Positions 2,475 through 30,528 are shown, counted from the stretch's first letter. The stretch: DNA of 64,000 nt from Endomicrobiales bacterium (GCA_963794945.1 CAWCFT010000003.1:32001-96000); one strand, 5' to 3'. Notes: a model not told the origin generated them from the sequence alone. Translations and numbers: made by a program.

Positions 2475-2479
2475 CATTT

Positions 2480-10232: not shown

Positions 10233-10249
10233 TAATCTGTTAAAAAGGA

Positions 10250-10747: not shown

Positions 10748-10756
10748 AGAGGCCTT

Positions 10757-11122: not shown

Positions 11123-11165
11123 GGTCAAAGCAAATTTCGACAAGCGTTAACGGAGGTACGATATT

Positions 11166-12386
11166 ATGGTAAAAATTCTGATCATGGACGACGAGCCGGG
11201 CTTAAGAAATATAGTGTACAACATTGTAAAACCGCTCGGTCATCCGGTTTTTACTTCCGAAGACGGTCATCAAGCTCTGGAGGTTGCGAAAAGGGAGAAT
11301 CCTGATATCGCCTTGCTTGATGTCAGAGTGCCGGATATGGACGGGCTGGAAGTACTGGCTGAGCTCAGAAAGATCAATCCGAACATAAAAGCTATAATGC
11401 TCTCTGGTTTTGGGGACGTGGAAAGCGCAGTTTTTGCTCTCAAACAGGGGGCGTTCGATTATATAAGCAAACCATTTAAAGTGGATGACGTAATTAAAAC
11501 GGTCAATAAGGCAATAAGCGCTATGGGTCAAGGTCAAGCAGCAGCTCCAGCAGCAAGTTCTGCTGGTCAGCAGCCAGCACAGGCACCTGCTATGGCCCGC
11601 GACAAGGCCACGAAACCGGAAACTGCCGCAACAAAGCTACAGAACAAGCCGCCCATTGGTCTTATAGCTGGCGGGGCACTGGTCCTCGCAGTGGCGGGCA
11701 TTTTTCTTTTCAAAGGTATTCTGACTAAATCACATGCCGAAAGCTATACGATACCCTACTCAAATCCTATAGGTATGTGCTGGATAAAACCATACCTTTG
11801 GGTAAGCGATTGGGTCGTGGGCAATATCTACCAACATAACAATGACGCGACACTTTCGATAGCTTCTGTTTATAAAACCAATAACACCCAGCCGACAGGC
11901 ATCACTTTTGATGGTGAAGCGTTGTGGACATGCAGTTCGGTAGAGAAAAGGATATACAAACATAGAATGGATAAAAATCTGTCGGTATCAGAGATATTCT
12001 CCACCCCGAACAGCAGCCCGGCTGGATTATACTTTGATGGAGCCAACCTCTGGGTACTAGATACCAACGCGGCGAAGATCTATAAGCATAAAATGGACGA
12101 AACTCTTTCTATTGTGAGCGTTTTCGACAGCCCAGCTGTCAGCCCTTGCGGTATGTTCCGGGACGGCGAGTATTTCTATATAGGCGACTATAAAACTTCA
12201 CGAATTTACAAGGTGTCGGTAAATGATTTTTCCGTAAGAGAAGTGTATTCAATGCCGGATTTTGAGGAAGGTAAGAATAAGCTGGCCAGCATCACATGGG
12301 ACGGTTCCAGCATCTGGGCTACGGCTGATGGTGTTGGAAAGATATTTAAAATACCGTTTAAATCTTTAAAAACAATCAAATTTTAG
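11166..12386 (+). CDS. Receiver - Ala/Pro linker - TM helix - extracytoplasmic beta-propeller
   Basis: REC domain (LLDVRVPDMDG); TM segment IGLIAGGALVLAVAGIFLF; repeated P.G(I/L).(F/W)DG..LW....IYKH units. Confidence 0.8.
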   Translation: MVKILIMDDEPGLRNIVYNIVKPLGHPVFTSEDGHQALEVAKRENPDIALLDVRVPDMDGLEVLAELRKINPNIKAIMLSGFGDVESAVFALKQGAFDYISKPFKVDDVIKTVNKAISAMGQGQAAAPAASSAGQQPAQAPAMARDKATKPETAATKLQNKPPIGLIAGGALVLAVAGIFLFKGILTKSHAESYTIPYSNPIGMCWIKPYLWVSDWVVGNIYQHNNDATLSIASVYKTNNTQPTGITFDGEALWTCSSVEKRIYKHRMDKNLSVSEIFSTPNSSPAGLYFDGANLWVLDTNAAKIYKHKMDETLSIVSVFDSPAVSPCGMFRDGEYFYIGDYKTSRIYKVSVNDFSVREVYSMPDFEEGKNKLASITWDGSSIWATADGVGKIFKIPFKSLKTIKF

Positions 12387-12503: not shown

Positions 12504-12532
12504 TTGACAAATAACAGGATCTGTGTTATATA
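12504..12532 (+). promoter_or_regulatory. Sigma70-type promoter upstream of the riboswitch leader
   Basis: TTGACA (12504-09), 17 nt, TATATA (12527-32), with TG at the extended -10 position. An ATAACA...TGTTAT inverted repeat overlaps the spacer. Confidence 0.75.
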
Positions 12533-12550
12533 GTTAGTGGAAACAAGAAG

Positions 12551-12660
12551 GCTGTCTGAAAGTTAACGACAATAGCAAACTCCGGGAAACCGGAGGACGC
12601 AAAGCCACGGGGCTAAAGATAGGGGGCTATCAACGCCAGCCGGGTTACCGAAAAGACAGC
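12551..12660 (+). ncRNA. GEMM-I riboswitch aptamer, A20 variant (predicted 3'3'-cGAMP type)
   Basis: ACGACAATA-GCAAAC-TCCGG-GAAA-CCGGA-GGACGCAAAGCCACGGGGCTAAA...CAGCCGGGTTACCGAA, closed by GCTGTC/GACAGC. The base before GCAAAC is A (12574). Confidence 0.9.
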
Positions 12661-12726
12661 TGCAAGACGGGTCTCAAAACGTTATTTGTTTGACATTAAA
12701 TCAGCAATACAAGTCCCCCTATCTTA

Positions 12727-12768
12727 AGCTACCGGGCATCACGAAAGTGAGCGGTAGTTTTTATTTTT
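12727..12768 (+). terminator. Intrinsic terminator, expression platform of riboswitch 1
   Basis: GCTACCG...TCAC-GAAA-GTGA...CGGTAGT followed by TTTTATTTTT. Adjacent CCCCCTATCTT (12715-25) is complementary to aptamer AAGATAGGGGG (12616-26). Confidence 0.8.
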
Positions 12769-12811
12769 GATGTGAGATCGCCCCCGATTTCACGCAAAGT
12801 TCTTTAAAAGA

Positions 12812-12914
12812 AGTTCCGATAAAGGCAAACTCCGGGAAACCGGAGGACGCAAAGCCACGGGCCTAAAAGGCGGAGTTGATCAGCCGCTTCAAGGTAGCCG
12901 GGTTACCGAAGACT
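12812..12914 (+). ncRNA. GEMM-I (c-di-GMP-I) riboswitch aptamer, G20 variant
   Basis: CCGATAAAG-GCAAAC-TCCGG-GAAA-CCGGA-GGACGCAAAGCCACGGGCCTAAA...GGTAGCCGGGTTACCGAA. The base before GCAAAC is G (12824). Confidence 0.92.
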
Positions 12915-13021
12915 AAGCCGTTTTCAAGTTCCGCGCGTATCGCGGGATGAGAGCCCCCAAACGGCTGATAAAGAGCAAGGGTTAACGCGATTTATGACCC
13001 GAACTCCTTAAAAGTTTAGGT

Positions 13022-13059
13022 AACCGGATTGTCCGTGGCGACGATTCGGTTTTTATTTT
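13022..13059 (+). terminator. Intrinsic terminator, expression platform of riboswitch 2
   Basis: A 12-bp stem AACCGGATTGTC / GACGATTCGGTT followed by TTTATTTT. GGTAACC (13019-25) and CCGTGGC (13033-39) are complementary to aptamer GGTTACC (12901-07) and GCCACGG (12854-60). Confidence 0.8.
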
Positions 13060-13073
13060 GCGAGGGTAAAAAG

Positions 13074-13460
13074 ATGGAGAAAAAAATGGTTTTGAAAATG
13101 ATTCTCACGGCACTGGCTCTTCTGGCTGGCTGGACGGTTCTCCCGTCTGCCGGTTCTGAGCAGGCTTACAGTATCGTTACAAATTTTCCGAATCCATTTG
13201 ATAGCCGGGAAGGGTCAACGACCATCTGTTACACACTTTCCTCCGAATCGGAAGTACAGGCAAAGATATACGATCTCCTTGGAAATCTTGTCAGGGAGTA
13301 TCCGTCCAAGATCGAAACAGCCGGGATAAAAACGGTTGTTTGGGATGGGACGGACCAGTATGGCGCCAAAGTTTCCAAAGGCGGCTATATTCTGACGGTT
13401 GAGATTAAAAGCGGTTCCGAAAGCATAATTGCTACCCGCAAGATTGGCGTGATCCACTAA
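13074..13460 (+). CDS. Small secreted protein: signal peptide plus a single FlgD-Ig / T9SS type-A CTD-like domain
   Basis: GAGGG RBS then ATG 13074; hydrophobic N-terminus; NFPNPF...IYDLLGNLVR...WDGTDQYG.KV..GGY...RKIGVIH. Confidence 0.8.
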   Translation: MEKKMVLKMILTALALLAGWTVLPSAGSEQAYSIVTNFPNPFDSREGSTTICYTLSSESEVQAKIYDLLGNLVREYPSKIETAGIKTVVWDGTDQYGAKVSKGGYILTVEIKSGSESIIATRKIGVIH

Positions 13461-13472
13461 GAGAGGAAGAAA

Positions 13473-15104
13473 ATGGAAAGGTCGATGAAAAACACGAATC
13501 TTAACAAGACCATAAGCAAAATCGCATTGATTTTGCTGACGGGATTCGTATTTTTATCGATAAATGTCATCAGTCCGGAGCGCATATTCGCTGACGCTAC
13601 CGGCGGTCAACCTGGACAATTCCTTGCGTGGGGCGCGGGCGCAAGGTCGCTTGCGATGGGCAGTGCCTTTTATTCCGTTTCGGATGACGCCTCTGCTACT
13701 TACTGGAACCCGGCGGGACTTGCCCAGATGGACCGCAAAGAATTAATGGCTCTGCATGTCAGTCTGTTTGCCGACACGAACTATGATTTTATTTCTTATG
13801 TACACCCGACCCCAAAGTACGGCGTGTTCGGGTTGAACCTGACAAGGCTTGATTCGGGCGGCTTTGAAAAGGTCAATATCACCTACGATTCGACTCAAAC
13901 CGATATAATAAATATTCAGAACATGGGCACTTTTGATGATGTGCAAACCGCGTTAACCGGCGCTTACGGCAAGAAGATCAGCGAGCATCTTTCGATAGGA
14001 GTATCAGGCAAATACATAACGCACACATTAGACACGTCAACAAACGGTTTCCTGACTTTCGATGTTGCCACAATGGTGCAGGGGGTCAGTAAAGAGCTTC
14101 CCAAGCTTAAGCTTGGGTTCGGCATACAGAACCTTATGGGCACTAAATTCGGCGATACGGATGACGTGTTGCCTATAATATTTCGCGCTGGAGTAAGTCA
14201 CCCCTTCTTAAGAGATAAACTTTTAGTAGCTTTCGATATAGATAAAAACATGAATACCAGCATGGGCTGGCACATAGGAACCGAATACTGGTTGTTGAAT
14301 TTCGCGGCCCTCCGCATCGGTTTCCAGGGCGGCAATGGTCTGACAGAAACTGACGCTGGGTTTGGAGTAAAATACAAGGATTATGGCATAGATTATGCAT
14401 TCGGTATACAAGACCTGGGGCTTTCAAGCAGGATATCGGGTACCTGGAGATTCGGGCCTTCCATCTCTGAGAACCGCGAAATCCTAGTTCGCCGCTACAT
14501 GCAGGAAGGCATGGAGGCGTACCGTCAAGGCAACTTCCTGCTTGCGTTCAACAGGCTTGAGGCAAGTCTTGACATAGACCCCGCGAACAAGGATGTTCAA
14601 AAGATGCATAGCAGGATGCAGCTTATAGTAGGATACCTCCAAACAGCTGCGGGTGAGAGCGAAGAAGCGGTATCTATCAGAAAGGGCGTTGCCGGATATG
14701 TTGAAAGCGATGAGAAGGGTGCTGTAAACGCTTTCAGATATGCTTATTACAAGAACCCAAATAATACAAAACTGCTTGCTTTATTAAACAGAATCGAAAA
14801 AGATGCCGGTATAACGACAACCGAGGCCTACAAAGAAGATGTTGTCGGCTTTACAATCATAGACCAGAAAGTTTACGACGCACGCCAGTCAATAGTAGAA
14901 GGTAAATATGATCAGGCGCTTATAAAGTGCCAAGAAATACTGAACCTTGAGCCCGCGAACCTTACAGCTATGGAAGTCATGGGTTCAGCGTTCTTCATGA
15001 TGGACCAGCCGGATAAGGCGAAACAGGTGTGGATGAAGGTTATGGAACTTGATCCGACAAACAAGGTCGTGCCCGAGTTCATTAATCAGCTCAAAGAGAA
15101 ATAA
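13473..15104 (+). CDS. PorV/PorQ-family outer-membrane barrel with C-terminal TPRs
   Basis: Signal peptide; FLAWGAGARSLAMGSA...DDASATYWNPAGL; GTEYW...LRIG; IDYAF; TPR-like helices at the C-terminus. Confidence 0.82.
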   Translation: MERSMKNTNLNKTISKIALILLTGFVFLSINVISPERIFADATGGQPGQFLAWGAGARSLAMGSAFYSVSDDASATYWNPAGLAQMDRKELMALHVSLFADTNYDFISYVHPTPKYGVFGLNLTRLDSGGFEKVNITYDSTQTDIINIQNMGTFDDVQTALTGAYGKKISEHLSIGVSGKYITHTLDTSTNGFLTFDVATMVQGVSKELPKLKLGFGIQNLMGTKFGDTDDVLPIIFRAGVSHPFLRDKLLVAFDIDKNMNTSMGWHIGTEYWLLNFAALRIGFQGGNGLTETDAGFGVKYKDYGIDYAFGIQDLGLSSRISGTWRFGPSISENREILVRRYMQEGMEAYRQGNFLLAFNRLEASLDIDPANKDVQKMHSRMQLIVGYLQTAAGESEEAVSIRKGVAGYVESDEKGAVNAFRYAYYKNPNNTKLLALLNRIEKDAGITTTEAYKEDVVGFTIIDQKVYDARQSIVEGKYDQALIKCQEILNLEPANLTAMEVMGSAFFMMDQPDKAKQVWMKVMELDPTNKVVPEFINQLKEK

Positions 15105-15162
15105 ATATCCTATTGAAATGATTGATAATTCAATCTATACTAAGTACTGTGAGGGATTAAGA

Positions 15163-16969
15163 ATGGAAAAAATTATTAAACGAATTCTAATTGTTTTTGC
15201 GGCTGTTTTTCTAACAGTAGCGCTTCGCTTTCCGCTTGGCTGGTCTCAGAGCACGCAGGATGATTCCCAGCAAAACAACCTGATGGACAAAGAGGCGAAA
15301 TTCGAGAAAGATAAAGCAGAATACCTGCAGTCGTTCGTGCTCGACAAGATACTTGGCCCCGGCAAGGCTATAGTTATAGTAGATGTACAAATGGGCACAG
15401 AGACAAAGGTTACAAAACAGGAAGCAAACCAGAAGAAATCAGAAAGAAAGAAAAGGCTGGGCGAAGTAGAATACCTACTTCCCGGAGTTCCGAACCCTAA
15501 ATCGGTAGCGCAGGAGTCAGCACCAGGCGAGTCTAAAGAAGAAACAGGCCAGGCGCAGGAAACAAAGGTGCAGGTGTTGACTGTTATAAAGAAACTTATA
15601 GTGACCGTTTTGTACGATGAAAAGATCACCCAGGATAAGCTTGATATAGTTAAAGACGCGATCATGTCTTCTATGAAGATAGACGTAAAAAGAGGAGACA
15701 AAATAGAATTTAAAAAAACAAAATTCACGCAGGGTTTTGTTGACGAACTGATGAAACCTCAGATACTCGTGCCTATCATTTTCGCTATGATGCTATTGTT
15801 TTTCCTGTTCGGCCCGGTAGCCAGTTTCCTGAGGTCTTTTGTCAAGACAATGCGCGAAAAAGGCGGAACAGAGGTCACCGTGGACTCGAAATTCGAGGGC
15901 GCTGGAGATGAAGAAGGAAAGGGCGGTGGCGGCGGCAACGGAGCCCTCACGGCATCAGAACTCGAGGCGCTGGAGAAAGAGAAAAAGAAATATCATCCTT
16001 TTGATTACATCAATGATGAAAACCTCAAGCGCATGGTTTACCTTATAAGAAGAGAGCCTCCACAGAGCGTGGCCCTTGTCGTGAGTTATCTTAAGCCCGA
16101 ATACGTCAGAGAGGTCTTGAACGCACTGACCCCTGAAATGCAGGCAAAAGTCGCTTTGGAAATGGCCACTATACGTTCCATGGATGAAGAGCAGGTCAAA
16201 AAAATAGACGACCACATCAAAGAAAAAATAGAGTTCCTAATTGGCGGTATATCGCACCTTCTTGAGGTTATCGACCAGGTAGACAAAGTTACACAGAACA
16301 ATATTTTTGATTATTTAAGGAATGAAAAACCAGAGCTCTATGATAAGGTAAGGAAATTCGTTCTTATGTGGGAAGATATACCGAATTTCCCGGATCAGGC
16401 GATGCAGGTGATAATAAGGGAGCTGAAAACACAAGATATGGCAAAGGCTCTGCGTAACGCAAGCTCAGAACGTGCTTAATAAGTATTTTGCCAATATGTC
16501 GGCCAATGCCGCGGCTATATTAAAAGAGGAAATGGAATACGGAAGGCCGCTTACGGACGCAGAGATTGAAGAGGAAAGAAAGCGAATAATAAATTTGATA
16601 AAGCAGCTTGAGAAAGACGGTCGCGTTTTCATAAGAGAAAAACCGAAGACCGACGTTCTTGAAGGAATAGAAGACAACGGCGGCGAACCCGTGCCTGAAG
16701 AGCAGGGCACGGCGAGTTACGAAGAGTATTATAACGCAGGAGCCCAATATTATGAGTTGTCGCAATTTGAAGAGGCGTTATCGTATTTTGAGTACTGCGC
16801 GCAGTTGGATCCTAACCAGCCGGCAATCTATCAGTATCTTGGAAATACATATTATGCGCTCGGCCGCAGCGCCGAAGCGATAGCGTCATTTGAAAAGGCA
16901 TTGGAACTCAATCCGGAGGATCAGGGTCTTCGGGCGTGGCTCTCAGAGCAAAAAAACGCCATAAGTTGA
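15163..16969 (+). CDS. FliF(YscJ C-terminal)-like / FliG M+C / TPR fusion; frameshift at about 16470 (about 601 aa repaired)
   Basis: N-terminal hydrophobic segment. FliF-like LDKILGPGKAIVIVDV, IKKLIVTVLYD and IDVKRGDKIEF. A TM helix. FliG-like EPPQSVALVVSYL, FVLMWEDI and ALRNAS..V..KYFANMS..AA.ILKEEME. A TPR pair. The ORFs join by removing one A at CAGAAC 16466-71. Confidence 0.82.
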
Positions 16970-17081
16970 AATAATATTTCTGTTAAAAAAGCGGTTTTAA
17001 GGCAAAATACAACAAAATTCGCTTTTTTGGCAGAAATTGATTTATTTGTGAATAAAAATAACTATTTTTACGGAGGTAAAG

Positions 17082-20000
17082 ATGGGCTTGTTCAAGAAAG
17101 ATAAACTAAAAGAAGAACAAAAACTCTCTGAGGCAAAATTGCCGAAAAGCCTAGAAGAAAAAAAGTCTATTTTGCCTGAAAGTGAAGACCTCTCACACTC
17201 AAGACAACGCGCTGAGGAACAGATAAGGGCGCTTGAAGAAAAAATTCAGAACCAGAGAGACAGCTGGGGCGCCAAAATGAAGGAGAAGGAAGAAGAAAGG
17301 ATATCTCTAGGCGCTCAGCTTGAGATGCTTGTACGTAAGGTTCAGAACGAGCGCGAGAAAAAAGAAGGTGAGTTGAACCTCCTTGAACAGCAGGTACAAA
17401 GAGACCTGGTTGAAGCCCAAAAATCTCTTGAAAATGAGATCAAAACATGGAATGAACGCCTTAGCGTTAAAGATAAAGAGATCGAACAAACAAAAGAGGA
17501 AGCGGAGTTGATCGAAACCAGAAAGAGGATAGAGAGCGATCAGAATTCAAGAGCTTTGAAATCCCAGTTGGAACAGATCGATCAAAAATATAAGACTCTT
17601 GAAAGAAAAATGCTCGAAGAGCAGAATACGTGGATAACTAGGATCAAAGGCAAAGAAGAAGAAATTTTAGGCGTAAAAACACAGGTCTCGCTTAAAGAAT
17701 CACAGATATCTATTGAAAACGAGAAGGATCAGACGCTAAAAAAAGAAAAAGAAACGGCATGGCAAGGCCAGGTTCAGGAATTAGAAACAAAGCTTAAGAC
17801 GCAGGAGCTTGAGTTCGAAAAAGAATACAAGAGGAAGCAGGATGAATTATCGGCCTTAAAAACAGCTATCGAGGCCAGGCTCAGCTCCATAACCATGGAA
17901 GCTGAGAAAAGGGAAAAAGAAACTCTGAGCCTTATTGCCAGGACCGAAGACAGGATAAAGATAATAAACGGGCATATTACCGAAGAGAATAAACATTGGC
18001 AAACTGTGCTTAAAGCCCGGGATGAGGAATTCAATAAGCTTAAAGTCGAACTTATGCTCCGCGAAAGCCAGGAAAAATCCGAAAGAGAGAAAAAGTTTCA
18101 GGAACTCGGAGAAGCTGAATCGCTGGCCAATAGAAAAATTAAGGAAATACGGCAGAAAATTAATGATGAAAAAGAAAACTGGAAAATTAGCCTCGATGCA
18201 AAAGAAGAAGAACTGAAGCTGCTGAAGATACAATCAGAACTTAAGCTCAAAGAAGTTCAGGAAATGTGGGAAAGCAGGAAGACAAGAGCTCAGGAAGAGA
18301 AATCGATCCTTGAGAAAAAACTCGTAGCGATCAGGGACAATTTTGAGCAGGAAAAGAATAACCTGAAAAAAGAACTAGATATTAAGACCGCGGATATAGA
18401 ACAGTATGAGCAAAAATGGCAGCAGAGGCAGAATGAGATCGCTGCTGCGAACACAAAAGAGCTGGAAGAGCTCAAGGCTCGCAAAGAAATACTTGAGGTG
18501 GAACTAGAGGAGCTTGAGGAAAACCTTAAAAATGAGAAGGCGAAGTGGGCAGGCCTGATACTTCAGAAAGAACAGGAAGCCAATGTCGTAAAAAATGAGC
18601 TAAAAGGCCGAGAATCTTCAGCTTTGAGGGATCTTGAGATCCTTGATATGCAGTTAAATAAGGAACAGCAACCGCTTCTCGATAAAGTCCGGGATATGGA
18701 AAAGCGTTTTGAAGACCACAAAAAACTTGTCAAGGCTGAACTCGGGCGCCGGGAAGCCGCGAAAACGGCACTTGAGGAACAATTCCGTGTAAGAGAAGAA
18801 AATTTGCTTCTGCGCCATAACAAGCAATCTGAAAAAATTAAAGTCCTTGAACAGGAAAATCTTTTAAAGATCTCAGAACTGAAAAAAAGCATGGAGGAGC
18901 AGTCTCAGTCCGCTCTTAAGAGGATAAATGAACTTAAGTCGGAAGAAAACATGGTCAAAGAAAAGCTCTCTTCGCAAGATAAGACAATAGCGGAAGAAAA
19001 GGCCAAACTTGAGGAACAGTATAAACACCGTAACAATATTTTGTTAGAATCGATACAAAATCTTGAGATAGAAAATGAGCGGCAAAGAGGACAACTGCAG
19101 GCCGAATTGGAAAATATGACAAAGGCTGCGGAAGAGATTAAAACAGAACTTGAGAAAAAAGAAAATCAGCTTTTGGCAGACCTGAAGCTTAAAGAAAAAG
19201 AGCAGGCATCGATAAAGACGTCTTCGGAAGCTGAGGTCGCAAAACTAGCCGAGGCGCTGACCAAAAACAATGAAGAATATGAGCGTGAGATAAAAGCTCA
19301 CAGGGAATCAATAGAGGCGCTGGAAAAGTCGTTCAAGAGCAAAGATGCCCAATTTCAAGCTGAAATAAAGAACATAAAAATAGAATGGGATAACAAGCTT
19401 CAACCCTTAAATGACGAACGCAAACAGCAGGAAGCGCGTCTGGCATTGTCAAAAAAAGAAGCCGAAGACAGAGCGCTCGCTATAGAGAATGCCATAAAAA
19501 TGTCCAGGGAGCAATACAAAATACAGGAAGAGAACGCCGCCAGAAATATATTGCAGGAAAATTTAAGGATTCAAGCGATAAAAGAAAAGCTTGCAAAAGA
19601 GGCTGCCGCTCTGAATCTGGAGATTGATACGCAATCCAGGCAGGCAAAGGAAATAATTGAAAAGCTTGCGCTTAGAGAGAAGGCCCTCGAAAACAATATT
19701 GCCGTTGAAGACCAGAGGCTGCACGCAGAAAGGGTCAGGGTAACCCAATTCTACGAAAATCAGCAAAAACAGCTCAACGAAACAATTAACAAGCTTGAAA
19801 AGGATTATTCGGATTTCGTAAAAAGCGTTGATGCGGATATAAAACTTAAAAATGCTGAACTGGTTCGGGAAGAAAAGAGAGTGAGAGATCTTGAGATGGA
19901 AAATCTCAAGGATATGAAACAAAAAGAGCAGGAGCTTTCGTTATTAGAAAATGAAAACAAAAAAGAACTCGCCGCGTTGTTTGCAGAGTACAATAGGATT

Positions 20001-22653
20001 AAAAATGAAAAAAGCGCTGAGATTAAATCAAAAGAAGAAACAATGGTGTCGCTTGTAAAATCACTGCAGGAGAACAAGGTCATTTATGATAGAGAGCTCG
20101 AGGCGCTCAAATCCAGTCTTGCCGCGGAACTGGAGCCGGTATCAAAGCGCAGGCAGGAGTTAAAAACGGATTTTGAACGGGCCAGAAAAGAGGCTGAAGA
20201 GAAGCTTGTCGCGGCCGCTAAAAGAATAGAATCTCTTAAAGCCGAGCAGGTAGCTTTGACCGCGGAATTTGAACGAAGACACGCTGAGTCTTCCGCGAAG
20301 ATGTCCTCCGCTAAAGCTGATTTTGACGGCCAGGTCAAAACACTGCTCGAACAGAAAGCTGGATATGAAAAAGAGGCAGCGGAAACTATAGCCGCCAAGG
20401 AATCTGAGATAAGCGCGCTAGAAAGCGAGGCCAACCAAAAGAAACTCGCTTTCGAAAAGCAAAAAGGGGGTTTGCAGTCACAGGGGCACTCGCTGATAGA
20501 AAAGGTTAAAGAAGAGATCTCGTCACTGGAAAAGGAAATGTCGCGGCTGGAAAAAGAATACCCGCAGGTCCTGCTGGAGCGTGAGAAAGAAATATCGCTG
20601 CTGACCTCCAGAATAGAGCAAAGATCTATAGAGAACAAGGACAAGTTGGACCTCGCAGAAAAAAGTACTGAAAATTATCAAAAGCGAGCTGAACGCCGTA
20701 TCACACAGCTTAAGGGGCAAATAAAGGAAGCGCAGGAGCACCACAAAAAAGAACTGGAATCGATCGAGGCCAGGCTCTCCAATATTCACTCGGATATAGC
20801 AAAGAAGGAGAATTCATACCAGGAAGAATTCTTAAGAGAAGGAAAAATATTTGCCGAGCAAAAATACGTTCTCGAGAAACAGAAAGCAGAATTTGGCGAA
20901 AAACTCAGGGACCTGCAGTTGTATTCAAGGGAGCAGTTGAGGCAAAAAGAGAAAGAAATACTTATCCTCCAGAGTGATCTGGCTGAAAAAGAAAAAGCCT
21001 GGGAAGAAAGTTGGAAGCAAAAGGAGCAGGAGCTGGCGATAGAAAAAAATTCGCTTTTGCAAGAGCTCGAGAGTCTTGACGCAAAGCTGAAAGACGAAGA
21101 GGAAACGGTCAAAAAAAGAATAAATGAAAAAGAACGTGAAATACAGTCTCTGGAAAATACATACTATACAAAACTTGAAAACATGTCGGCCGAGATGTCT
21201 TCAAAAAAGAAAGTGTGGGAAGACACTAATTTAGGCCTTAAGAACCAGGCTGAACAGCTAAAAAATAGCCTGGCCTCGCTAGAAAACAGTTGGGAAGAAA
21301 CAAAGGCACAAAAAGAGAAAGAGTTGTCCGTTCTTAAATCCAATCTTGAATTTTGGGAATTACGTTCAAAGAACGAAGAAGAAAAAAGACTGGCCGCGTG
21401 GGAAGAAGAAAGATCCGGCCTTGAGAGCAAAGTTAAAGACGCAGAAAATAAGCTGGCCGCGCTGAAAAAAGAATATTCTGCGAAGAACGAGGAGAAGGAA
21501 GCCGCGTTAAATGCCTTAAGGGTCCAGGGTGAAGAGAACGAAAAGGAAAAACTGAATGAACTAAAAAAGATTGAGACAGACTATACAGCGGCACAGAACT
21601 CACTTGCGCTGGAGATATCAGCCTGGGAAAAGAAACTCAAAGAAGAAACTCTCAGGACGGAGAAGGAAAAGAAAGAGATAGAGCGTGAGCTTGAAAAGCT
21701 GAAACTTGAAAGCGCCCTAAAAGAGAACGCAGCAATGTTCTGAGCAGCAAAAGAACGAAAGGAAATGGCGTAAACTCCAGAGAGACCTTGAAGAACAGCT
21801 GATAGACTATGAACGCCAATTTGCCGACGAAAAAGAGAGCTTAAAGAGTAAGCTTAACATGAAGGCAGAAGAGATCAGTACGCTTAAAGTAAGAATGTCG
21901 CTTAGAGAAGAAAGACGCCAGTCAGAGATAAAGCACCGCCAGGAAGAGACACAAAAGATAATATCCGGCCTGGAATCAGAGCTCAAAGTGCTAGAAGATA
22001 AATACGGTAATAATATGGGCGCCTTAAATACAAGCCTGGGAAAATCAAGAAAAGAACTTGAAATGTTGAAGCAAGAAGCTATGGAAAAAGAAGAGAAGTG
22101 GGAAAAAGAAAACGAAAGCAGGGAAAATGCCGCGTCGAGCGCATATGCTTTGATAAATAAAGATCTTGAGGATGTGGAAAACGAATTGAGAAAGGAGAGC
22201 GAAAGGCTTGAGAGGATGCTGGATATAAAGCAGAAACAAATCGCCAATTTGACAGCACAGATGCAGTCTAAAGAAGCCGGCCTTATAACTGAAAGGGATT
22301 ATTCTCAGATAATACTGCAGGGGTTGCAGAAAAAAGCCGGCGATCTTCAGGGAGTACTGAACAAGCTCCAAAGGAATGGCAAAGAAAACGAAAAAGAAGG
22401 TCTTGGGCGCGTTTTCGAAGAAGCTATCGAGCATTATAACAGTGGTAATTACGAGAAAGCGAAAGAAAAACTGGGGCAAATATTGAAATCAAATCCGGAG
22501 TTCGCCGGGGCTTATCAATATCTTGCGCTATGCAGCTGGAACCTGGGAGAAAAAGAAGAGTCTTTGAAACTTGCCAGGAAAGCGTTCGAGCTTGAACCCC
22601 ACAATGAAGAATTGAAACTCTGGATAGAATATATAGAAAAAGAAAGTAAATAA
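17082..22653 (+). CDS. Giant coiled-coil protein with C-terminal TPR; frameshift at about 21738 (about 1856 aa repaired)
   Basis: E/K/Q/L-rich helix with 61-aa periodicity. Removing one T at GTTCTG 21737-42 reads through in frame into ORF 21859-22653, which ends in a TPR (AYQYLALCSWNLG...AFELEP). Confidence 0.85.
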
Positions 22654-22678
22654 AAACAAATCACTCAGGAGGACTAAA

Positions 22679-25600
22679 ATGGCTGACGACAAAAAACCAA
22701 AAATTCCGCCTCTTCCGCCGCAGAGGCCGCCAATGCCGAAACCGGCGGGTGGAGCGACTATACCTAAAGCGGGCCTGCCACCCCAGGCGCCAAGGCCGCA
22801 AGGGGTGCCGGTTAAACCTGTGATGCCTGCGATGAAACCTCCGGTAGCCGAACAAGCTCCTGCGAAGTACGCGCAGGGAAATCTTTCTCCAGCATCTAGT
22901 GAAGTCGACGAGATAAGAAAACAAATGGAATCTCAGATCATGGGCCTGCAGTATCAGCTGCAAGAAGAAAAAGAAAAACTCCTTCTTCAGACAGTCCGCG
23001 CGAAAGAAGAAGAAGCTATGGCGGCGAAAGTCGAAGAATCTCTTAAAGATATACAAGACAGGTTGCGCCGCGAGAAACGCGAGCAGGAACTGCAGGACTC
23101 CTTAGCGAAGTCCGAGCTCCAGGTAAAGGAACTCGAGCAAAGGGTCAGTGCGGAACGCCAAACGTGGGTTGAAACTTTGAAATCGCAGGTCGGTCAGAGG
23201 GAGAGCCAGGATAAGGAGCTCGAGCGCGATTTTGAGTTGAAGCTTAAGGAACTTGAGCGGCGCTGGCACGAAGAGAAGCTTGGCTGGTCTCAGGCTCTAA
23301 GGGGTAAAGACGAAGAGGTGGCTAGGCTCAAAAGGGAAGCTGAAGCGGCCATTACCGCTGAAAAAGGCAATTCCGAAAAACGCATCTCACAGCTGGAAAC
23401 AGAAAGGGACGCTTTCAGAAGGGAGATCAAGGAGATCGTTGACGTACGTGACCAGGAACGCGCGATGACCGCCTCAAAACTCGAAGCTCGCGACAAAGAG
23501 TTCCTATCGCTCAAGGCTCAGCAGGCGATGGTAGTTACCCAGTTGCGCCAGGGAAAAGAAAAAGAGGACCAACTTAGGGCGCTTCTGGAAAGAATGCGCG
23601 CCGAGAAAAACGGCCTCATCACCCAGCTGGACGCGAAAGACAAAGAATACTTTATGCTAAAAACGCAGTTCGCTCTCTATCAGAACACGGGCAAAAACTG
23701 AGCAGGAAAAGCTGATGAAAGAGATGCTGCTCTATAAAGAACAAATGCAGAAAGACCGGGATAACTGGGAAGTGAATATAAAAACTAAAGAGAACGAGCT
23801 GAGGATAATTTCCGATAACGCTAAGGATCGCGAGAACTCTTTAAAACAGTTGCTTGAGAAAAAAGAGATTGAACATACGTCATTTGTCAGGGAATACGAG
23901 GACAAGCTGAGGGCTCAGGAAGCTGCGTTCAGTCAGGTTGTCGAGAAGAAAGAAAGCGAAGCGTCTGCAGCGGTCAGGAAGGCTGAAGAGAAGATCATTG
24001 CCCGGGAGATCGAGTTTAAACAAGCGCTTGAAAAAAAGGACCTCGAGAAGGTTTTGCAAATAAGAGAGATGGAAGAGAAGATGCGTTCCCAGGAAGCTGT
24101 TTTCAGGCAGGCCGCTGAAAAGAAAGAAATTGAATTATCGGCTTTTGCCAGAACAGGCTGAGGAAAAACTTAAAGCCAGAGAGATTGAGCTGAGGCACTT
24201 GATAGAACAGAAGGATGCTGATATAAAAGAAGCGGTTAAAGACAATGTGGTAAAGATAACGGCCCTCGAGCAAGCTCACGGTCAGCAGATCGCTCAGAAA
24301 GACCATGAATTCAGAAATCAGCAATTGCAGTGGATCGAACGTATTCAGGTGAAAGAAAAAGAGATCAACGCGGCCGCAGAAAAGGAGAACACGTTAAAGG
24401 TGAGGATCGCACAGGTAGAACAAGTTGTACACCAGCTGGAAGAAAAACTTAAAAATGAGACCGAGTCACTTATCGCTGAGCGGGCCCACAATGAACAGAA
24501 CGAGAGGGAGTTCAATGCCGCCATCGTGCGAAAAGAAAATGAGTTCAAAGAAGCAGTTTCGAAGCAGGAAGAAAAATTACGCGCCATTGGAAAAGAGCTC
24601 GCCGAGTCTCTTGCCCACTCGCAGATACTTAACCTCGAAATAGCCAAAAGAGAGCAGCAACTCATTCAATTCAAGTCTGATATAGAACGGAGCGCACAGT
24701 CGGCTGCCTTGCTAGCAAAAGAGAACGAGAGCAAATCAATAGAGCTAACAGAAGCCTTGTCTCGCGCTCAAGGCCTAAGCCTTGAAGTGGCGATGAAAGG
24801 TCAGCAGCTGATTCAGTTCAAAACGGAGCTCGATAGGAGCGAAAAAACAATTGAGGCGCTCAAGAGCGAAAACGAAATAAAAATAAAGGAATTAGCCGAT
24901 GCCGCGGCGCGTGCTCAGGGCCTCGGCCTAGAACTCGCCAAGAAAGAGCATGAGCTCGTTCAGGCAAAGATCGATATAGATAGGGCTTCACAGGCGTTCC
25001 TCGTCATGGAGAAGGAAAAAGAAGGCAGGATGAAAGAGGTGTCCGAGCTTATCGAAAAGAGCAGAGAACTCAGCTCTCGCCTTATTGAACAAGAACGTAA
25101 CAGTAGAGAGCTCTCAGAGCGCATAAGAGATAAGTCGGAAGAGGCCGCGCGTGTGACAGAAATTTTAGCGCGGACGGAGAATGAGCTTAAGGTGGCACGC
25201 TCGGGCTTCCTAACAGAACTTTCAAAAAAAGAGAATGAAATAATCTCTTTCAGGGAGAAAGACAGCGACTCAAGGGTCAAGATATCATCCTTTGAGCAAA
25301 GGATTAGAGAACTTGAGGAAAAACTTGAAAATGGGGAACAGGCCATTAAGGGAAAAGATGATATGCTGCGCGATAAGGAGACAGAACTTCTTATACAGCA
25401 GGAAAAGACGGAGCAGGCAAAAAAGGAGCTCAATGATAGACTTTTAAAAGAGCAGGAAAAATTCACACTCGCGGTCGATCAACTTAAAAAAGAGTCGGGT
25501 GATAAGTTATTACAGGAAGAATCTAAATTGAAGGCGCAAACGGATCTCTTAAAAGAAGAGGCCAGGAATGCCGTAAATTTGAAAGAGCTTGAAATAAGGG

Positions 25601-26676
25601 ACCTGAGGAATGAAAAAGAGAATCTGAAGACAGAAGCCGCGAAGATGTCGATGGAGATAGTTTCCAAGGAAAAGGATATATATGAATTAAAGAACAGCCT
25701 GCTCTCCAAGGAAAGAGAAATAACCCATGAAGTGGAGCGCAGGGAGTCTGTGTTTGCTGGCGAAAGGAACGCGATGTCGGAAAAAATACGGATGCTTGAA
25801 GATGCCCTGAGAGAGGCTCAGAACAATTCAGGGGAAGGGGCTAAGCGCCTGGAACAAGAACTCAAGGAAAAAGTAGAGGAGTTTACCGCAGAAAAGAGAA
25901 ATAAAGACGAAGCGATAACCGCCCTAAAAGCGGAGAATAATGCCTGGCGCCTGGAAAAGGAAAAGCTGCTCGAGCTTAAGGCCCAGTCTGAAGACATGAA
26001 CCAGGCGGAGCTTATGAGCGTGCAGAGGAAACTCTGGGAAAACAAAGAGAAGTCCAACGAGCAGCTCAAGGAAATGGAGCGGGAGATCACCGCACTCAGA
26101 GATGCTCAGAAAGACGTCGAAGAAAAGGTAAGAACGGAGCTACTGAATAAATACAGCGCGAAGATAATGGAGCTGGAAAAAGAGAATGAGACGCTGTCAA
26201 AAGATGTTTCTACAGAGGTGCGTACGCTCAGGAGCTCGCTGCAGGAGGAACTTAAGAAAAAAGAGGAGCAGCTAAGCACCGAACGCTCTAGCTGGGAAAT
26301 GAAGCTTAAGGAGAAAGAAGACATTATCGCCGACATGGCGAAAAAAATGGAGAGTGCCGGTGAGAAACAAAAGGAAAAGGACGTTATGTCCACCGTGCAG
26401 GCGATAAAGAACGCCGTAGAGACAAGAACTGTGGGCTCTGACGCTTCTATAAACGACAAAACGTTGGTCATAGAAAGGGCTAAAGACCTATTTGATAAAA
26501 CCGCGGTAATAGAGCCTCGTTCGAAAAGCGATGACACTATCCCGGCTGTTAAGGGCATAGACCTGCCGTCTAGCGATAAAAGGTCGCTTTCCGGTCTGAT
26601 CTGCGGTATATGGAAGAGCATCAACGAGCCCGTCATAGAAATTAACGTTAAAAAAAATGAAGATAGAAAAGGATAA
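22679..26676 (+). CDS. Giant coiled-coil protein with Pro-rich N-terminus; frameshifts at about 23684 and 24152 (about 1331 aa repaired)
   Basis: GGAGG RBS. Three ORFs join by removing one A at each of CAGAAC 23681-86 and 24149-54. Internal 29-aa and 49-aa repeats. Confidence 0.83.
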
Positions 26677-27190
26677 TTTAGCTATGGGAACAAAAACGGA
26701 ATTTGAATGGGAAAAATATGAGAAGCGATTTGCTGAGCTGGAAAATCGTATTTCCTGCCCTTCGCGCCTAAAACCATCGGCCTCTAATAATAAATCAAAT
26801 GATATAACGGACTGTTTTGGGAAACACGATAGCCAAAAACACGAAGAAACAGTTGTTTTGCCTGCTGTGCGGGACAGCTCCTCTTATATGCTCGCAGAAG
26901 AGGTCAGATTTTTGAAGGCGGAGATAGCGCAGCTAGCGCAGATTAAAGAAGAGTCACTAAAACTCAAATATGACATAGCAAACATAGCAAGCCTTAAAGA
27001 TTCCGAAATAGCCAGACTTTTCGCAAGGAATAGACTGCTTGAAGAAGAAAATAACGGGCTTAAACTGAAGATCAGTAGATACAATTTTGACACTGCGGAA
27101 AGCTTCCGTGAAAGAGAACACAGGCACCATAAGAAAGAAGGACTGCTTGGATGGCTGAAGAAGCCTATGTTAGTTATTGAACCGGAATAG
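26657..27190 (+). CDS. Small coiled-coil hypothetical protein
   Basis: Operon-like overlap with the upstream gene; heptad segment LAEEVRFLKAEIAQL...; ends GLLGWLKKPMLVIEPE. Confidence 0.7.
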   Translation: MKIEKDNLAMGTKTEFEWEKYEKRFAELENRISCPSRLKPSASNNKSNDITDCFGKHDSQKHEETVVLPAVRDSSSYMLAEEVRFLKAEIAQLAQIKEESLKLKYDIANIASLKDSEIARLFARNRLLEEENNGLKLKISRYNFDTAESFREREHRHHKKEGLLGWLKKPMLVIEPE

Positions 27191-27194
27191 GATC

Positions 27195-28315
27195 ATGGGG
27201 CATATAAAGATATACATTTCGTTTTCGTTGCTCTGCGCGGTGACTTTGTTCTGCGTGCGCGAGCAACATGTCGCGCTCAAAAAAGATGCGTCCAATCCCG
27301 ACCAGCCTGCCGGGAATGGGCAATATTAAACCCGCAAAAACAGCACCTATATCTGCAACGCCGGCCGAGCAGAAAGGGGCGCCAGAAAAGGAAAAGCCAC
27401 AAGAGGTGAAAACTCCTGAGGCCGCCGAACCGGCAGTTAAGGAAGAAGAAACAGAACACCTTAGGAAGCACAATGCCGGGCGCAGGTGTTGAAAAATCAA
27501 CAAAAAGTGAAATAGCTCCGGAACCGGCGATAAAAATCAACGCAAGCGCAAAAGAAGAGCAGAAGGCGCCAAGCTTAAATTTGCTGCCGCTCAAAATTAT
27601 TTTTAGTAATTCTGGGAACGCAAAGTCACTGGATGACAATGAATCTCACCCGAGCGTAACCGTCAAGCAGCCTGTGCCTGAAGTCAAGCAGGAACAGACT
27701 AAGCCGCCAGAACCTGTTATAAAAGAAGAACAAAAGCCTGTACCAGCGCCCATTGAAGAAAAACCGCAGGAAACAGAAGAAACAATAAATACTCCGCCTC
27801 CTGTTCCAGTGCCAGAGCAAAAGCCGTTAGTTCAAGAAGAAGAGAAACAGGCGCCGGCCGCTCCGGTAAAAGAAACACAGGAAAATGTGGCCCAGCCTGA
27901 GCCGGTAAATAGCGCCGAGCCCGAAGTTAAAGAAAAAGAGGAACAGAAAAGCGTTATTGAGAAGAAGGCGGAGCCTGTCGAAGTGGAGCCGGCCCCCACG
28001 GCACCGGCAAAGGTGCCCGCACCGGTTCCTGCACTCATCCCGGCTCCCGTGAAGAGTGCGGCCAGCGTTGCAGGCGTTAAAATTGACAAACAGGCAAAGA
28101 AAAAATTATTTCTAGAGCATAAAAAGTCGCAACAGGCAAAAGCCGAAAACCAGCGCCAGGCCAGGATGCATACGGTTGTCGTTGGGGACAACCTGCAGTC
28201 GCTGGCCGAAAAATATTATGGTGATAAATCCATGTGGGTAAAATTATACGACGCAAATAAAGATAAGTTAGAGAAAGGCACGCTGGAAGCAGGCCAAACA
28301 ATTTTGATCCCATAA
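27195..28315 (+). CDS. Lipoprotein with long Pro/Glu/Ala-rich linker and C-terminal LysM; frameshifts at about 27250 and 27455 (about 372 aa repaired)
   Basis: Removing one T at GTTCTG 27248-53 creates the lipobox L-S-A-C. Removing one A at CAGAAC 27452-57 joins to the LysM HTVVVGDNLQSLAEKYYGD...W..LYDAN...GQTILIP. Confidence 0.83.
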
Positions 28316-28365
28316 ATTTCAGAACCGTTTTACATATGGGCCCATTAAACCGGGCGGAGGCTATA

Positions 28366-30424
28366 ATGGACGAATTTAAAGACATCGATACCGAACTCAT
28401 GAGGCTCAAGGAAGAGCTCAACTCAAAACATGAAGATTTCAGTCACGTGAAATTCCCATCGTCCGGTGATTACTGGCGTTCGCGCCTTGATGAAGAAAGG
28501 GTGCTCTGGGATAAAAAAGTTGTGCTTGGCAGCGAAGAGAGAAAGGCGCTCGAGAAGAAGCTAAACGAGCAGGAAGAGCTCCTTTCGCGCTACAACCAGA
28601 GCGTCAGGGAAATGGAAAGAAAGATAGAGAACGATACAAAACTCTGGGAGGACCGCCTAAGGATCAAAGAAGCCGACATAATGATCGAAAAAAGCCGGCT
28701 ACAAAGCGAAGCCAGGGTCAAAGAGATCGAGCTCGAAAGGCAGAGCCTCATGAAACACGTAACCGAGCTCTCTCTTAAAATATCAGAACTGCGCGACGAC
28801 CAGGCAGCAGAGATAGAAATACTGAACATGCATGCGAAGCAAGACGCCGACCTTTATGAACAAAAACTCAAGGTTGCTGCGGCCGAATCCGACGCGCTGA
28901 AGAACAGGATGTCCGATGCGGAGAGCGTACTGAAAGCCCGTATATCGGAACTTGAAAAGCTTAAAGAAGAGTACAGGGTAAGGCTTGAGGCAGCGGAAAA
29001 GAAGGCCGAAGAGGAAGCACGAGCAAGGTTCGCAAGCGATGAAGCGGCGTCAAAAACAAGAGCTAAGTCGGAAGAAGACAAGATCCAGATAAGAAAATCA
29101 TTTGAAACCACAACTATTAAATTCGCCGGTATCATCAATAAAGATGTGGGTGCCCTGGCCGGCCTTTCCGGCATTGCCGCCGATCACGAGCTAAAAAAAG
29201 AGACACTACTTATCATTAAAGGTTTGACCGGAAAACTGCAGTCGGAGTTGGGCGGGTTCGAGAAAGAACTTAACTTAAAATTCGATGTGGACGACAATTT
29301 CAAAGCCGCTATCATCATGAGTGAAGATGAAGCCGCCTACTGGGAAGCGGCCCTCTCCGGCACGCGCGTGACGATGGAAAAACTCGGCGTAAAATCGAAT
29401 GTCAAAAAGTCGATTCCCGCTTTGAAACCGTGCGTTTGTGTCGTTTCGTTAAAAAAAATCAAGGCGGCGAGAACGATCAAAGCCAGGTGGCCATTCGTCC
29501 CGGTTATAATATATGGAGAACTCCCCGAGAAACGCAAGGCAAAACTTGAAAAGGGCGGTTTCATAACGGTATCTTCATACGGAACAGCGGACGATATGTA
29601 CCAGTCGCTTTGCGACGCTGCAAAGAACAGCGCTGCCCAGCCGGACTACTGGGGCAAAGTAAAAATTAAAAGCAGGTGGGTCCTGCCTACTATGTACGCG
29701 GCCGCGACTATGTTGCTTGCCGGCCGGCTTCATTTACATGAACAACCCTGCCCTGCTCGAAAGGTTCGGCAGGGTGGCATCCTACAGCGTGCCTTACAGC
29801 CAGCCTTCCAATATAACATTTGACGGCGCATACCTCTGGGGCTGCGATTGGTACGGCCAGAGCATATACAAACATGACACAACCCAGGGGCTGAAGCTCC
29901 TTAGGATATTCTGTTTTCCCGGCAAGCATTTTACGGCTATAACCTGGGCCGGCGGCTACCTCTGGAGCGCGGACGCTTGGGAAAATAAGATATACAAACA
30001 CAACACGGACGATAACTTCACCGTGCTTGAGACCTTCTCTACGCCCGGCACCGCAATAAGCGGCCTCGCTTTCGACGGGAAAAACCTATGGTCGTGCGAT
30101 TCCTCGGCTGGCATGATATACCGCCACACAATCGACGCCAACCTTACCGTTGAGGACGCTTTCGAGAGCCCCGGCGCGAGCCCGTCAGGGTTGTTCTTCG
30201 ATGGGAAAAATCTCTGGAGCGTCGATTCAAAGATAAACAGGATATTCCGCCACAAGATGGATGCTACCCTCAGCGTTGAGAAGTCGTTCATCCCGCCGCT
30301 TTACGACCAGAAGAATTACAACCTCAGCGGTATCGCCATAAAGAACAACAAGTTCTACGTGTGTTCAGAAAAGCTTGGAAAAGTATTTAGTTTTCCCGCG
30401 GAGAAAATGGAAGAGGTAAAGTGA
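28366..30424 (+). CDS. Coiled coil - degenerate receiver-like domain - TM - beta-propeller; frameshift at about 29722 (about 685 aa repaired)
   Basis: GGAGG RBS before ATG 28366. A hydrophobic segment (WVLPTMYAAATMLLA.AGFIYM) spans the break. Propeller repeats (SGLAFDGKNLWSCD, SGLFFDGKNLWSVD) resemble those of 11166-12386. Confidence 0.75.
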
Positions 30425-30468
30425 GCGCCTGCGGCGAGGCGTTTAAACCATAAATATTCAAATATAAT

Positions 30469-30504
30469 AAAAAAGCCCCGAGTCTCAAGACCGCGGGCTT
30501 TTTT
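30469..30504. terminator. Bidirectional intrinsic terminator between convergent operons
   Basis: AAAAAAGCCC...GGGCTTTTTT. Confidence 0.8.
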
Positions 30505-30528
30505 ATTTATAGTCAGTTAAGGAATATG

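Follow-up and report, generated by a model that had tools for sequence, protein, structure and literature searches.

An operon in the genome of an Endomicrobiales bacterium points to an undescribed envelope machine made from parts of the flagellar motor. It occupies positions 13074 to 30424, co-directionally on the plus strand, of a 64,000-nucleotide stretch of DNA (GCA_963794945.1, CAWCFT010000003.1:32001-96000; hereafter the window, from whose first letter positions without a contig name are counted), and is closed by a hairpin with a T-run at 30470-30506. Its core is a natural fusion of pieces of FliF and FliG (FliFG), preceded by a secreted protein with a sorting domain of the type IX secretion system (T9SS) and by a PorV-family outer-membrane barrel, and followed by two giant coiled-coil proteins (CC1 and CC2), the whole lying behind a leader with aptamers for cyclic di-GMP (c-di-GMP). 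That the operon encodes a real, conserved envelope system that is not a flagellum we hold with high confidence. That this system is a MotAB-driven, flagellum-independent ring machine coupled to surface proteins held by PorV-like barrels is the reading we prefer, at a probability of roughly 55%.

The window is C3:32001-96000 of a 2.90-Mb assembly in 19 contigs (85.9% complete, 5.9% contamination) from a soil bacterium placed in Elusimicrobiota, Endomicrobiales. Gene models follow a tblastn comparison with the closest relative, G151 (FliFG 74% identical), whose proteins are intact, and every operon gene is colinear with its G151 orthologue. A sequence-only reading of the window had picked out the barrel, the sorting-domain protein, the FliF-FliG fusion, the coiled coils, the LysM protein, the propeller gene and the terminator, and each is present where it was placed; its estimate of about 3,200 amino acids (aa) of periodic coiled coil in two proteins agrees with the approximately 3,190 aa of CC1 and CC2 together. 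Two of its descriptions are amended here: the riboswitch it proposed as a gate is present as a tandem of two c-di-GMP-I aptamers, and the fusion it recognized carries an extra TPR domain.

FliFG matches Pfam YscJ_FliF_C, FliG_M, FliG_C (the last cut by a frame break) and a C-terminal TPR, and aligns with 15 intact orthologues of 600-690 aa. The FliF part comprises about 165 periplasmic residues matched by YscJ_FliF_C alone, with no RBM1 or RBM2, and is thus not a full-length FliF; FliG_N is also missing, and a Gly-rich linker occupies its place. In an AlphaFold2 model of the G151 orthologue (pLDDT 71.4), a first transmembrane (TM) segment is followed by a helix (32-61), two long strands (66-83 and 130-149), a second helix (154-168) and a further strand (177-183), then by TM2 (196-230), the disordered Gly-rich linker, FliG_M/FliG_C (287-483) and the TPR (515-599). 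Foldseek relates the FliG part of this model to 1lkv (1.1e-12) and to FliG_C of 8ucs_H (target TM-score 0.92), and the RBM3/collar part to 6sd1_A (5.6e-5), 8z4d (1e-4) and 7bk0_B (2.5e-5); the FliG part matches Thermotoga maritima FliG (1lkv) with E 1.4e-42. The loop between the two long collar strands is disordered in the model and carries an L-P-G-x-P-x-P motif that is invariant in the 15 orthologues. Residues of FliG and MotA (e.g. R90, E98) are given in E. coli numbering. In the torque helix, the acidic pair D288/D289 is represented by EE and K264 by R, in the window and in the orthologues alike. In place of the FliM-binding EHPQ motif, FliG_M has EPPQ, whose E is invariant and whose second P (P299) is nearly so; the motif is thus partly kept although the genome gave no FliM/FliN match.

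The barrel scores 140.3 bits on the NCBIfam family PorV_fam (cut-off 90) and falls below the equivalog cut-offs for PorV (52.8 vs 250) and PorQ (56.1 vs 220). In its AlphaFold2 model (pLDDT 77.5), residues 89-327 form 14 strands and residues 331-542 form 11 TPR-type helices, and its best Foldseek matches are PorV chains (8gl6_F, E 1.4e-11; 6h3i_F, 5.2e-11), followed by FadL and TodX. Since a barrel of this kind should have its two termini in the periplasm, the TPR tail is presumably periplasmic. The small protein encoded ahead of it consists solely of a signal peptide and a sorting domain that scores 42.8 bits on Pfam FlgD_ig, 26.1 bits on NCBIfam TIGR04183 Por_Secre_tail (cut-off 23) and 20.9 on Pfam Por_Secre_tail, below its cut-off of 27. 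The host genome holds 22 matches to FlgD_ig or the C-terminal sorting domain (CTD), of which 10 exceed the cut-off, as well as some 15 loci with PorV-like barrels, and many of these lie next to each other; the TPR part of the barrel profile is matched only by the three FliFG loci of the genome and by one further match on C11. A complex prediction pairing barrel residues 42-543 with FliFG periplasmic residues 27-200 scored 0.08 against a mark of 0.32, which is uninformative either way. Elsewhere in the window, at 59095-62170 on the minus strand, a 682-aa sorting-domain open reading frame (ORF; FlgD_ig) lies beside split PorV-like barrel ORFs with no FliFG alongside, and about a dozen such pairs are scattered through the genome.

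No signal peptide or TM helix is predicted for CC1 or CC2. Their long pieces are rich in E, K, R and Q (42-46%) and poor in P and G (at most 3%), with a heptad signal 2.4-2.8 times that of shuffled sequence and none in control proteins. Since Tandem Repeats Finder found no array at 17000-30500, this periodicity is one of heptads and not of DNA repeats. The TPR of CC1 is 31% identical to that of FliFG (E 1.5e-13). For the N-terminal part of CC2, an Atlas search gave only generic coiled-coil or crescentin-like leads of low recognition. Among the tail genes, the LysM protein has a signal and lipobox-like start by eye, and its G151 orthologue has a signal peptide with LVLGC; the propeller assignment of the last operon gene, and of its paralogue RRx in the neighboring che operon, is a weak lead (0.94-0.95 by Atlas score, with a weak Pfam match). 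Only G151 shares the tail of LysM and propeller genes with this locus; in the other relatives its place is taken by another protein, about 1,200 aa long.

Table 1. Features of the operon, its leader and its surroundings, with the paralogous loci of the same genome (C, contig).
Feature	Position	Strand	Basis or remarks
che operon	2-12386	+	Pfam
FtsA/PilM-like actin-fold protein, 651 aa	6734-8689	+	extra C-terminal part of about 290 aa
RRx, receiver + TM + beta-propeller, last che gene	11166-12386	+	
Promoter-like TTGACA, 17-nt spacer, TATATA	12504-12532	+	by eye; consensus scan found none here; weak
c-di-GMP-I aptamer 1	12564-12652	+	Rfam RF01051, 83.9 bits, E 4.5e-15, gathering 35
Intrinsic terminator 1, expression platform of aptamer 1	12727-12775	+	hairpin and U-run
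c-di-GMP-I aptamer 2, GGC variant	12815-12911	+	Rfam RF03167, 72.1 bits, gathering 59
Intrinsic terminator 2, just before first gene	13022-13060	+	12-pair stem and T-run
Small secreted protein, signal peptide + T9SS type-A sorting domain (CTD/FlgD_ig) only	13074-13460	+	
PorV-family outer-membrane barrel with C-terminal TPR domain (about 210 aa)	13473-15104	+	NF033709
FliFG: TM1, FliF RBM3/beta-collar, TM2, Gly-rich linker, FliG_M, FliG_C, TPR	15163-16969	+	
Frame break, FliFG	16470/16472		
CC1, cytoplasmic coiled-coil giant, about 1,860 aa, ending in TPR	17082-22653	+	colinear with 1,851-aa G151 orthologue
Frame break, CC1	21721-21752		
CC2, Pro-rich N-terminus, conserved N-terminal domain, coiled coil, about 1,330 aa	22679-26676	+	
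Frame breaks, CC2	23637-23683 and 24047-24466		
Small 177-aa protein, no family match	26657-27190	+	orthologues in G151 and G169
LysM lipoprotein, Pro/Glu/Lys-rich linker	about 27195-28315	+	LysM 24.5 bits; three-frame reading
Frame breaks, LysM gene			two, by three-frame reading
Cytoplasmic coiled coil, TM, beta-propeller-like protein	28336-30424	+	colinear with 683-aa G151 orthologue, TM 434-452
Frame break, coiled-coil/TM/propeller gene	29736-29777		
Terminator, two-way	30470-30506	+	hairpin between A-run and T-run; scan lists minus strand
Paralogous triad	C4:13869-21240	-	sorting-domain protein of 1,429 aa first, PorV-like barrel-TPR, FliF-FliG fusion
Paralogous triad	C16:8373-14445	-	sorting-domain protein of 274 aa, barrel-TPR, FliF-FliG fusion

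Conservation was followed in two sets of loci, one of 15 orthologous loci taken from 201 sampled genomes of the phylum and another of 80 further loci from named records of metagenome-assembled genomes, which partly overlap the genomes of the first set and are labeled Elusimicrobia, Elusimicrobiota, Endomicrobia or Endomicrobiales, with six generic 'bacterium' and one 'Ignavibacteria'. In agreement with the synteny expected from the sequence-only reading, the order sorting-domain protein, barrel-TPR, FliFG, CC1, CC2 recurs in 10 of the 15 orthologous loci and the core in 14, as do the barrel (14/15) and a CC2a-like protein (14/15); here FliFG is unbroken at 600-690 aa, CC1 with its TPR spans 1,546-2,103 aa and CC2 828-1,244 aa. 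In the larger set, the fusion ORF is intact, at 560 aa or more, in 77 of the 80 loci. Of the 71 loci whose flank is long enough, 62 have the barrel directly upstream of the fusion; ORFs with a sorting domain (122 to >1,350 aa) precede it in 30 of 66 loci, and CC2a-like ORFs follow it in 48 of 61. The operon comes in two forms. In the short form, the barrel and FliFG are followed by a CC2-type protein (457-1,220 aa; CC2a-like ORF directly behind the fusion in 37/45 loci, its start mostly -7 to +38 nt from the fusion stop) and then by MotA, which is found downstream on the same strand in 39 of the 45 short-form loci. The long form, to which the window belongs, has CC1 inserted behind the fusion and MotA within 5.4 kb in none of 16 loci. 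CC2 is therefore the phylum-wide core partner of the fusion, and CC1 is an addition of this lineage.

The arrangement also recurs within the genome, where FliG_C matches three loci and the triad of CTD protein, barrel-TPR and FliFG occurs three times. On C16, a PD40/fn3 protein interrupts the triad, which is preceded by ORFs of 741 aa and 2,741 aa.

If FliFG were the rotor of an ordinary flagellum encoded elsewhere in the genome, which the sequence-only reading had named as one outcome that would undo it, then export, rod, filament and switch genes should be recoverable. Profiles for FHIPEP/FlhA (PF00771), Flg_bb_rod (PF00460), Flagellin_N (PF00669) and FliMN_C (PF01052) gave no match in this 86%-complete genome, and the same flagellar searches were positive in all four flagellated control genomes. 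For the phylum sample, the lists for the fusion query, FHIPEP and MotB_plug were read together and their overlaps counted by hand; the genomes are related and not independent, so these counts are descriptive. The fusion is present in 69 of the 201 genomes and 51 of 77 genera, and in 1/63 and 0/58 members of two large families, which are probably the animal-associated ones. FHIPEP was matched in 5 of the 201, and 67 of the 69 genomes with the fusion are without it, which argues against a complete flagellum as the home of this rotor. MotB_plug follows the opposite pattern: it was found in 78 of the 201 genomes, namely in 68 of the 69 with the fusion (the miss is G123) and in 10 of the 132 without, these ten including three FHIPEP holders and three with weak matches only.

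The sequence-only reading saw no mot, fliM/N, export gate, rod, hook or flagellin gene, which holds for the window, but two pairs of MotA and MotB (with plug and OmpA domains) lie outside it, near 256 kb on C4 and near 71 kb on C12. The C4 MotA matches solved flagellar MotA/PomA structures with E values from 1e-47 (6ysf) to 1e-41 and keeps the equivalents of R90 and E98. In all five distant loci that were checked with Pfam, MotA and MotB stand behind the fusion in the same operon, and the fusions of those loci are only 31-41% identical to the one described here. Because the C4 MotA is 66-73% identical to these in-operon MotAs and the C12 MotA 33-37%, the C4 pair is likely to be the cognate stator, relocated from the operon in this lineage. 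Across six aligned MotAs (two of this genome, the others encoded within the operons of relatives), the R90 equivalent is kept as R or K in all. At C4:254000-261000, the MotAB pair lies between pilB/pilT/pilC, on the opposite strand, and a 994-aa protein ending in FlgD_ig.

The leader between the che operon and the first gene is 690 bases long and contains two c-di-GMP-I aptamers, both above gathering score and on the strand of the genes, as expected of members of the Rfam clan in a 5' leader; the P1 stem of aptamer 1 reaches 12551-12661 in the fold. Switching was assessed by a crude method, in which the free minimum-energy fold is compared with one computed with the aptamer enforced. Without that constraint, the 5' half of aptamer 1 (12604-12628) pairs with the 5' flank and arm of terminator 1 (12711-12738), and the 11-pair terminator hairpin keeps a fraction of 0.36 of its pairs, compared with 1.00 when the aptamer is enforced. 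Likewise, in 6 of 6 loci whose first aptamer has a clear terminator, the full hairpin forms only with the aptamer enforced (0.00-0.73 rising to 1.00). The predicted folds thus make the layout of aptamer 1 most likely an OFF-switch design, in which high c-di-GMP would lead to termination. Rfam c-di-GMP-I aptamers lie upstream on the operon strand in 12 of 14 related loci (tandem in 7, single in 5, absent in 2), and a sequence-only profile finds an aptamer in 46 of 66 loci.

The flagellar operon of Clostridioides difficile offers a close parallel, a c-di-GMP-I aptamer with a terminator that shuts a motility operon off as c-di-GMP rises. The likeness is in the placing of aptamer and terminator ahead of the operon; the aptamers here are in tandem, the target is not flagellar, and the OFF logic is predicted by folding only. 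The host genome has four c-di-GMP-I aptamers in all, and the two paralogous FliFG loci carry none. The other two are at C7:46452-46542 (+), ahead of two proteins rich in fn3 domains, of 561 and 1,238 aa, and a LysM protein of 576 aa, and at C4:320937-321066 (-), ahead of large proteins without a family match. Terminator-like sites within the operon number 29, compared with 25.8 in shuffled sequence; this is no excess, and it is uninformative on internal transcription units.

If these parts work together, FliFG would form the central ring of an envelope-spanning machine, on whose FliG face MotAB stators, here the candidate pair at about 256 kb on C4, would turn or push. The periplasmic collar would hand this work to the PorV-like barrel, which would hold the sorting-domain surface protein, so that the output would be the handling or movement of surface proteins and not a filament. 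CC1 and CC2 in the cytoplasm would take over as scaffold from the missing FliM/FliN C-ring; the earlier proposal of a repurposed MS/C-ring fails on its C-ring, since FliM/N are unmatched and FliG_N is missing. The tandem riboswitches would most likely terminate transcription at high c-di-GMP, as for a motility-type organelle. A more detailed version, which we offer tentatively and think less probable than the general scheme, is an additional type of ion-driven motor in the envelope of Elusimicrobiota, with neither axle nor filament, in which MotAB powers a FliF(S-ring)-FliG rotor and the collar, through its LPGxPxP tip, torques the TPR-tailed barrels. Such a hybrid of flagellar motor and T9SS would have coiled coils as its C-ring, c-di-GMP as its OFF signal, a chemosensory feed through the RRx paralogue and perhaps CheC-like proteins docking on FliG_M, and its torque would move or load the sorting-domain surface proteins.

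Several observations weigh against a MotAB-driven machine or limit it. Ring formation and the contact between collar and barrel TPR are hypothetical, and the stator is assigned in this genome by orthology alone, no mot gene having been found in the window, nor in the operon or within 14 kb in 10 long-form loci of 20 kb. The C4 MotA is under the NCBIfam MotA cut-off (231.5 vs 340), as the FliG part is under that of TIGR00207 (86.5 vs 226.7). Two basic residues of the torque helix are lost, R281 being N here (N, G or S in orthologues) and R297 being S, and E98 of MotA is Q in 2 of the 6 aligned sequences. One classic rotor-stator charge pair thus seems to be kept and the other lost, and because R281 and R297 are not basic and E98 is sometimes Q, the predicted interface appears only partly flagellar. 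Terminator 2 is present in both fold states, giving aptamer 2 no clear switch direction. With 86% completeness and 5.9% contamination, the absence of flagellar matches is not proof for this genome alone. Decay of the operon in this strain could also be the cause of its seven frame breaks, which affect five genes over 17 kb.

On this last point, the frame remains open and conserved past every break, as in the 64% identity to G151 beyond the break in FliFG, and unrelated genes of the assembly are split likewise (MotB, a Ni-insertion protein, a methyl-accepting chemotaxis protein (MCP), and the C4 and C16 paralogues), so the breaks are probably assembly errors. Long homopolymers are not evident at them. 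A soil-metagenome run yielded 14 short pieces of at least 99% identity, and none of the 8 listed pieces crosses a frame break.

How else could the same parts be understood? The alternative to which we would turn first, unlikely as we think it, is that MotAB-FliFG is the power unit of a secretion system, replacing GldLM/PorLM and energizing the export or anchoring of sorting-domain proteins through the barrels. The PorV_fam and Por_Secre_tail matches above curated cut-offs, the 22 FlgD_ig/CTD matches and approximately 15 PorV-like loci of the genome, many adjoining, the CTD genes of 122 to >1,350 aa upstream in 30/66 loci and the lack of a GldM_1st match in all 21 genomes searched fit this. Only three loci pair CTD and barrel with FliFG, however, so that the barrels seem to work without it; a c-di-GMP OFF switch suits motility better than adhesin export; and the sole trace of an SprA-type translocon is a match of 38.7 bits that was not reproduced. 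A static ring is also improbable in our judgment. An unmoving FliFG would then be an inner-membrane platform fixing the PorV-like barrels, in the manner of the SctJ and SpoIIIAG rings, which are ring-building platforms of the inner membrane, with the coiled coils positioning it, for example at a pole. Such a scaffold would accommodate the two lost basic residues, the absence of a stator gene from this operon and 10 long-form loci, the tether-like look of large cytoplasmic coiled coils with TPR ends, and the LysM peptidoglycan anchor within the operon, but it leaves the near-perfect co-occurrence with MotB_plug (68/69), the MotAB genes in 39/45 short-form operons, the high conservation of the stator-facing FliG_C and the R90 equivalent in 6/6 MotAs without a role.

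Two further explanations seem to us very improbable. The operon might be a pseudogenized flagellar leftover, functionless in this strain, as seven breaks in five genes over 17 kb with no obvious long homopolymers there could suggest; yet the open and conserved frames behind all breaks, the like splitting of unrelated genes and the unbroken fusion (at least 560 aa) in 77/80 related loci argue for a functional gene set, whose parts, moreover, are new fusions and not relics. Or MotAB and FliFG might be accessories of type IV pili that modulate twitching, with the che operon and its PilM/FtsA-like gene in control of the pili and not of the FliFG operon. The orthologous MotAB pair adjoins pilB/pilT/pilC, the FtsA-like gene scores weakly as PilM, and twitching is raised as a possible role in the available passages of a preprint on this phylum (10.1101/2022.07.08.499144). 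Against this, pilus genes are absent from the operon and from 15 related loci, the partners that conservation points to are a PorV-like barrel and proteins with sorting domains, and the adjacency of MotAB and pil genes was observed in this genome only. The MotAB-driven machine thus remains the reading we prefer.

The che operon next door contains genes for an MCP, CheR, CheY, CheB-HNOB, CheA-CheW, a response regulator with PAS (RR-PAS), an FtsA-like protein, two CheC-like proteins, CheD, CheY and RRx. As the sequence-only reading had it, this operon includes an FtsA-like gene and ends in a paralogue of the last gene of the FliFG operon, the two sharing the TM/C-terminal domain (tblastn E 1.5e-35, 2.9e-42); this paralogy of RRx hints at sensory input in this lineage. 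The link between the che operon and the system, however, is found in this genome and one relative only. The FtsA-like protein scores 144.5 bits on NCBIfam ftsA, under the cut-off of 175.85, and weakly on PilM, and has orthologues in 3 of 5 relatives, beside the operon in G151 only, 100 kb off in G065 and on another contig in G119; none was found in G177 or G169. Because G151 alone of these five keeps it, the adjacency is recent and lies outside the conserved system. CheC-like proteins are relatives of the FliM middle domain, and two of them are encoded here, near a fusion with a partly kept FliM-binding motif. CheB (2480-4093, +) is an unusual sensory fusion of receiver, methylesterase and C-terminal haem-NO-binding (HNOB) domain, and the MCP at the start of the window is split over the overlapping frames 2-616 and 504-1127 (+).

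Full-text literature searches, with preprint supplements outside their reach, turned up no account of the fusion, its operon or the partner proteins, in keeping with the earlier impression that this gene set is not a named system; neither PMC12505986 nor PMC13277936 treats it in the parts available. The same preprint states, in its available passages, that free-living Elusimicrobiota have no flagellar structural genes yet numerous motAB, flbD and fliG homologues, whose role it calls unclear or 'enigmatic' (10.1101/2022.07.08.499144). Phylum and phyletic pattern are those of the system described here, whereas a FliF fusion, an operon, a PorV-like barrel, coiled coils and a riboswitch do not appear in these passages. 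If our reading is correct, the 'enigmatic' motAB and fliG genes would have a function, and the flagellar torque core would have been put to a new use, without a flagellum and joined to outer-membrane parts of the T9SS type. Only three proton-driven rotary machines, ATP synthase, the flagellar motor and the T9SS, are counted in the part of PMC9127263 available. The new use would also bear on the modular assembly or dismantling of the flagellum. The fusion also offers a compact single-chain ring-rotor for structural study.

Single covalent FliF-FliG chains have a precedent in the Salmonella and Vibrio fusions used in structural work, which are reported to assemble into rings; these are full-length laboratory or mutant chains inside a complete flagellum (PMC6079021, PMC11481574). 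The fusion described here, by contrast, is natural and truncated, having the S-ring part and no FliG_N, and occurs in genomes without flagellar genes. With the flagellar motor at large, the system has in common the fold of the FliF RBM3/beta-collar, FliG_M and FliG_C with the acidic pair in the torque helix, and a flagellar-type MotA with the R90 equivalent and MotB with plug motif and OmpA domain. It differs in that RBM1/RBM2 and FliG_N are missing, in that rotor parts and an added TPR form one chain, in that FliM/FliN, export gate, rod, hook and filament are unmatched in the genome, and in that its partners are a PorV-like barrel, a protein with a sorting domain and coiled-coil giants.

The T9SS has an ion-driven stator whose action reaches PorV-type parts of the outer membrane through the periplasm, and it is here that the second set of likenesses lies: a PorV-family barrel whose best fold match is PorV of the SprA translocon complex, a type-A sorting domain on the cargo, and energy presumably drawn from a stator of the ion-driven 5:2-type family. 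On the other hand, the barrel has a TPR tail, and the presumed motor is MotAB acting on FliG and not GldLM. GldM_1st had no match in 21 genomes including this one, GldL, PorK and PorN not having been searched for. A six-frame search matched SprA_N once, at 38.7 bits, in an ORF of 1,754 aa at C5:39154-44418 (-) beside a DDE transposase gene, and this lead was not reproduced, hmmscan assigning the ORF to no family and phmmer against the Protein Data Bank returning no SprA. The system thus lacks most features that define a flagellum and has two of those of the T9SS, the barrel and the cargo domain; by working principle, its nearest models are the rotor-stator core of the flagellum and the T9SS.

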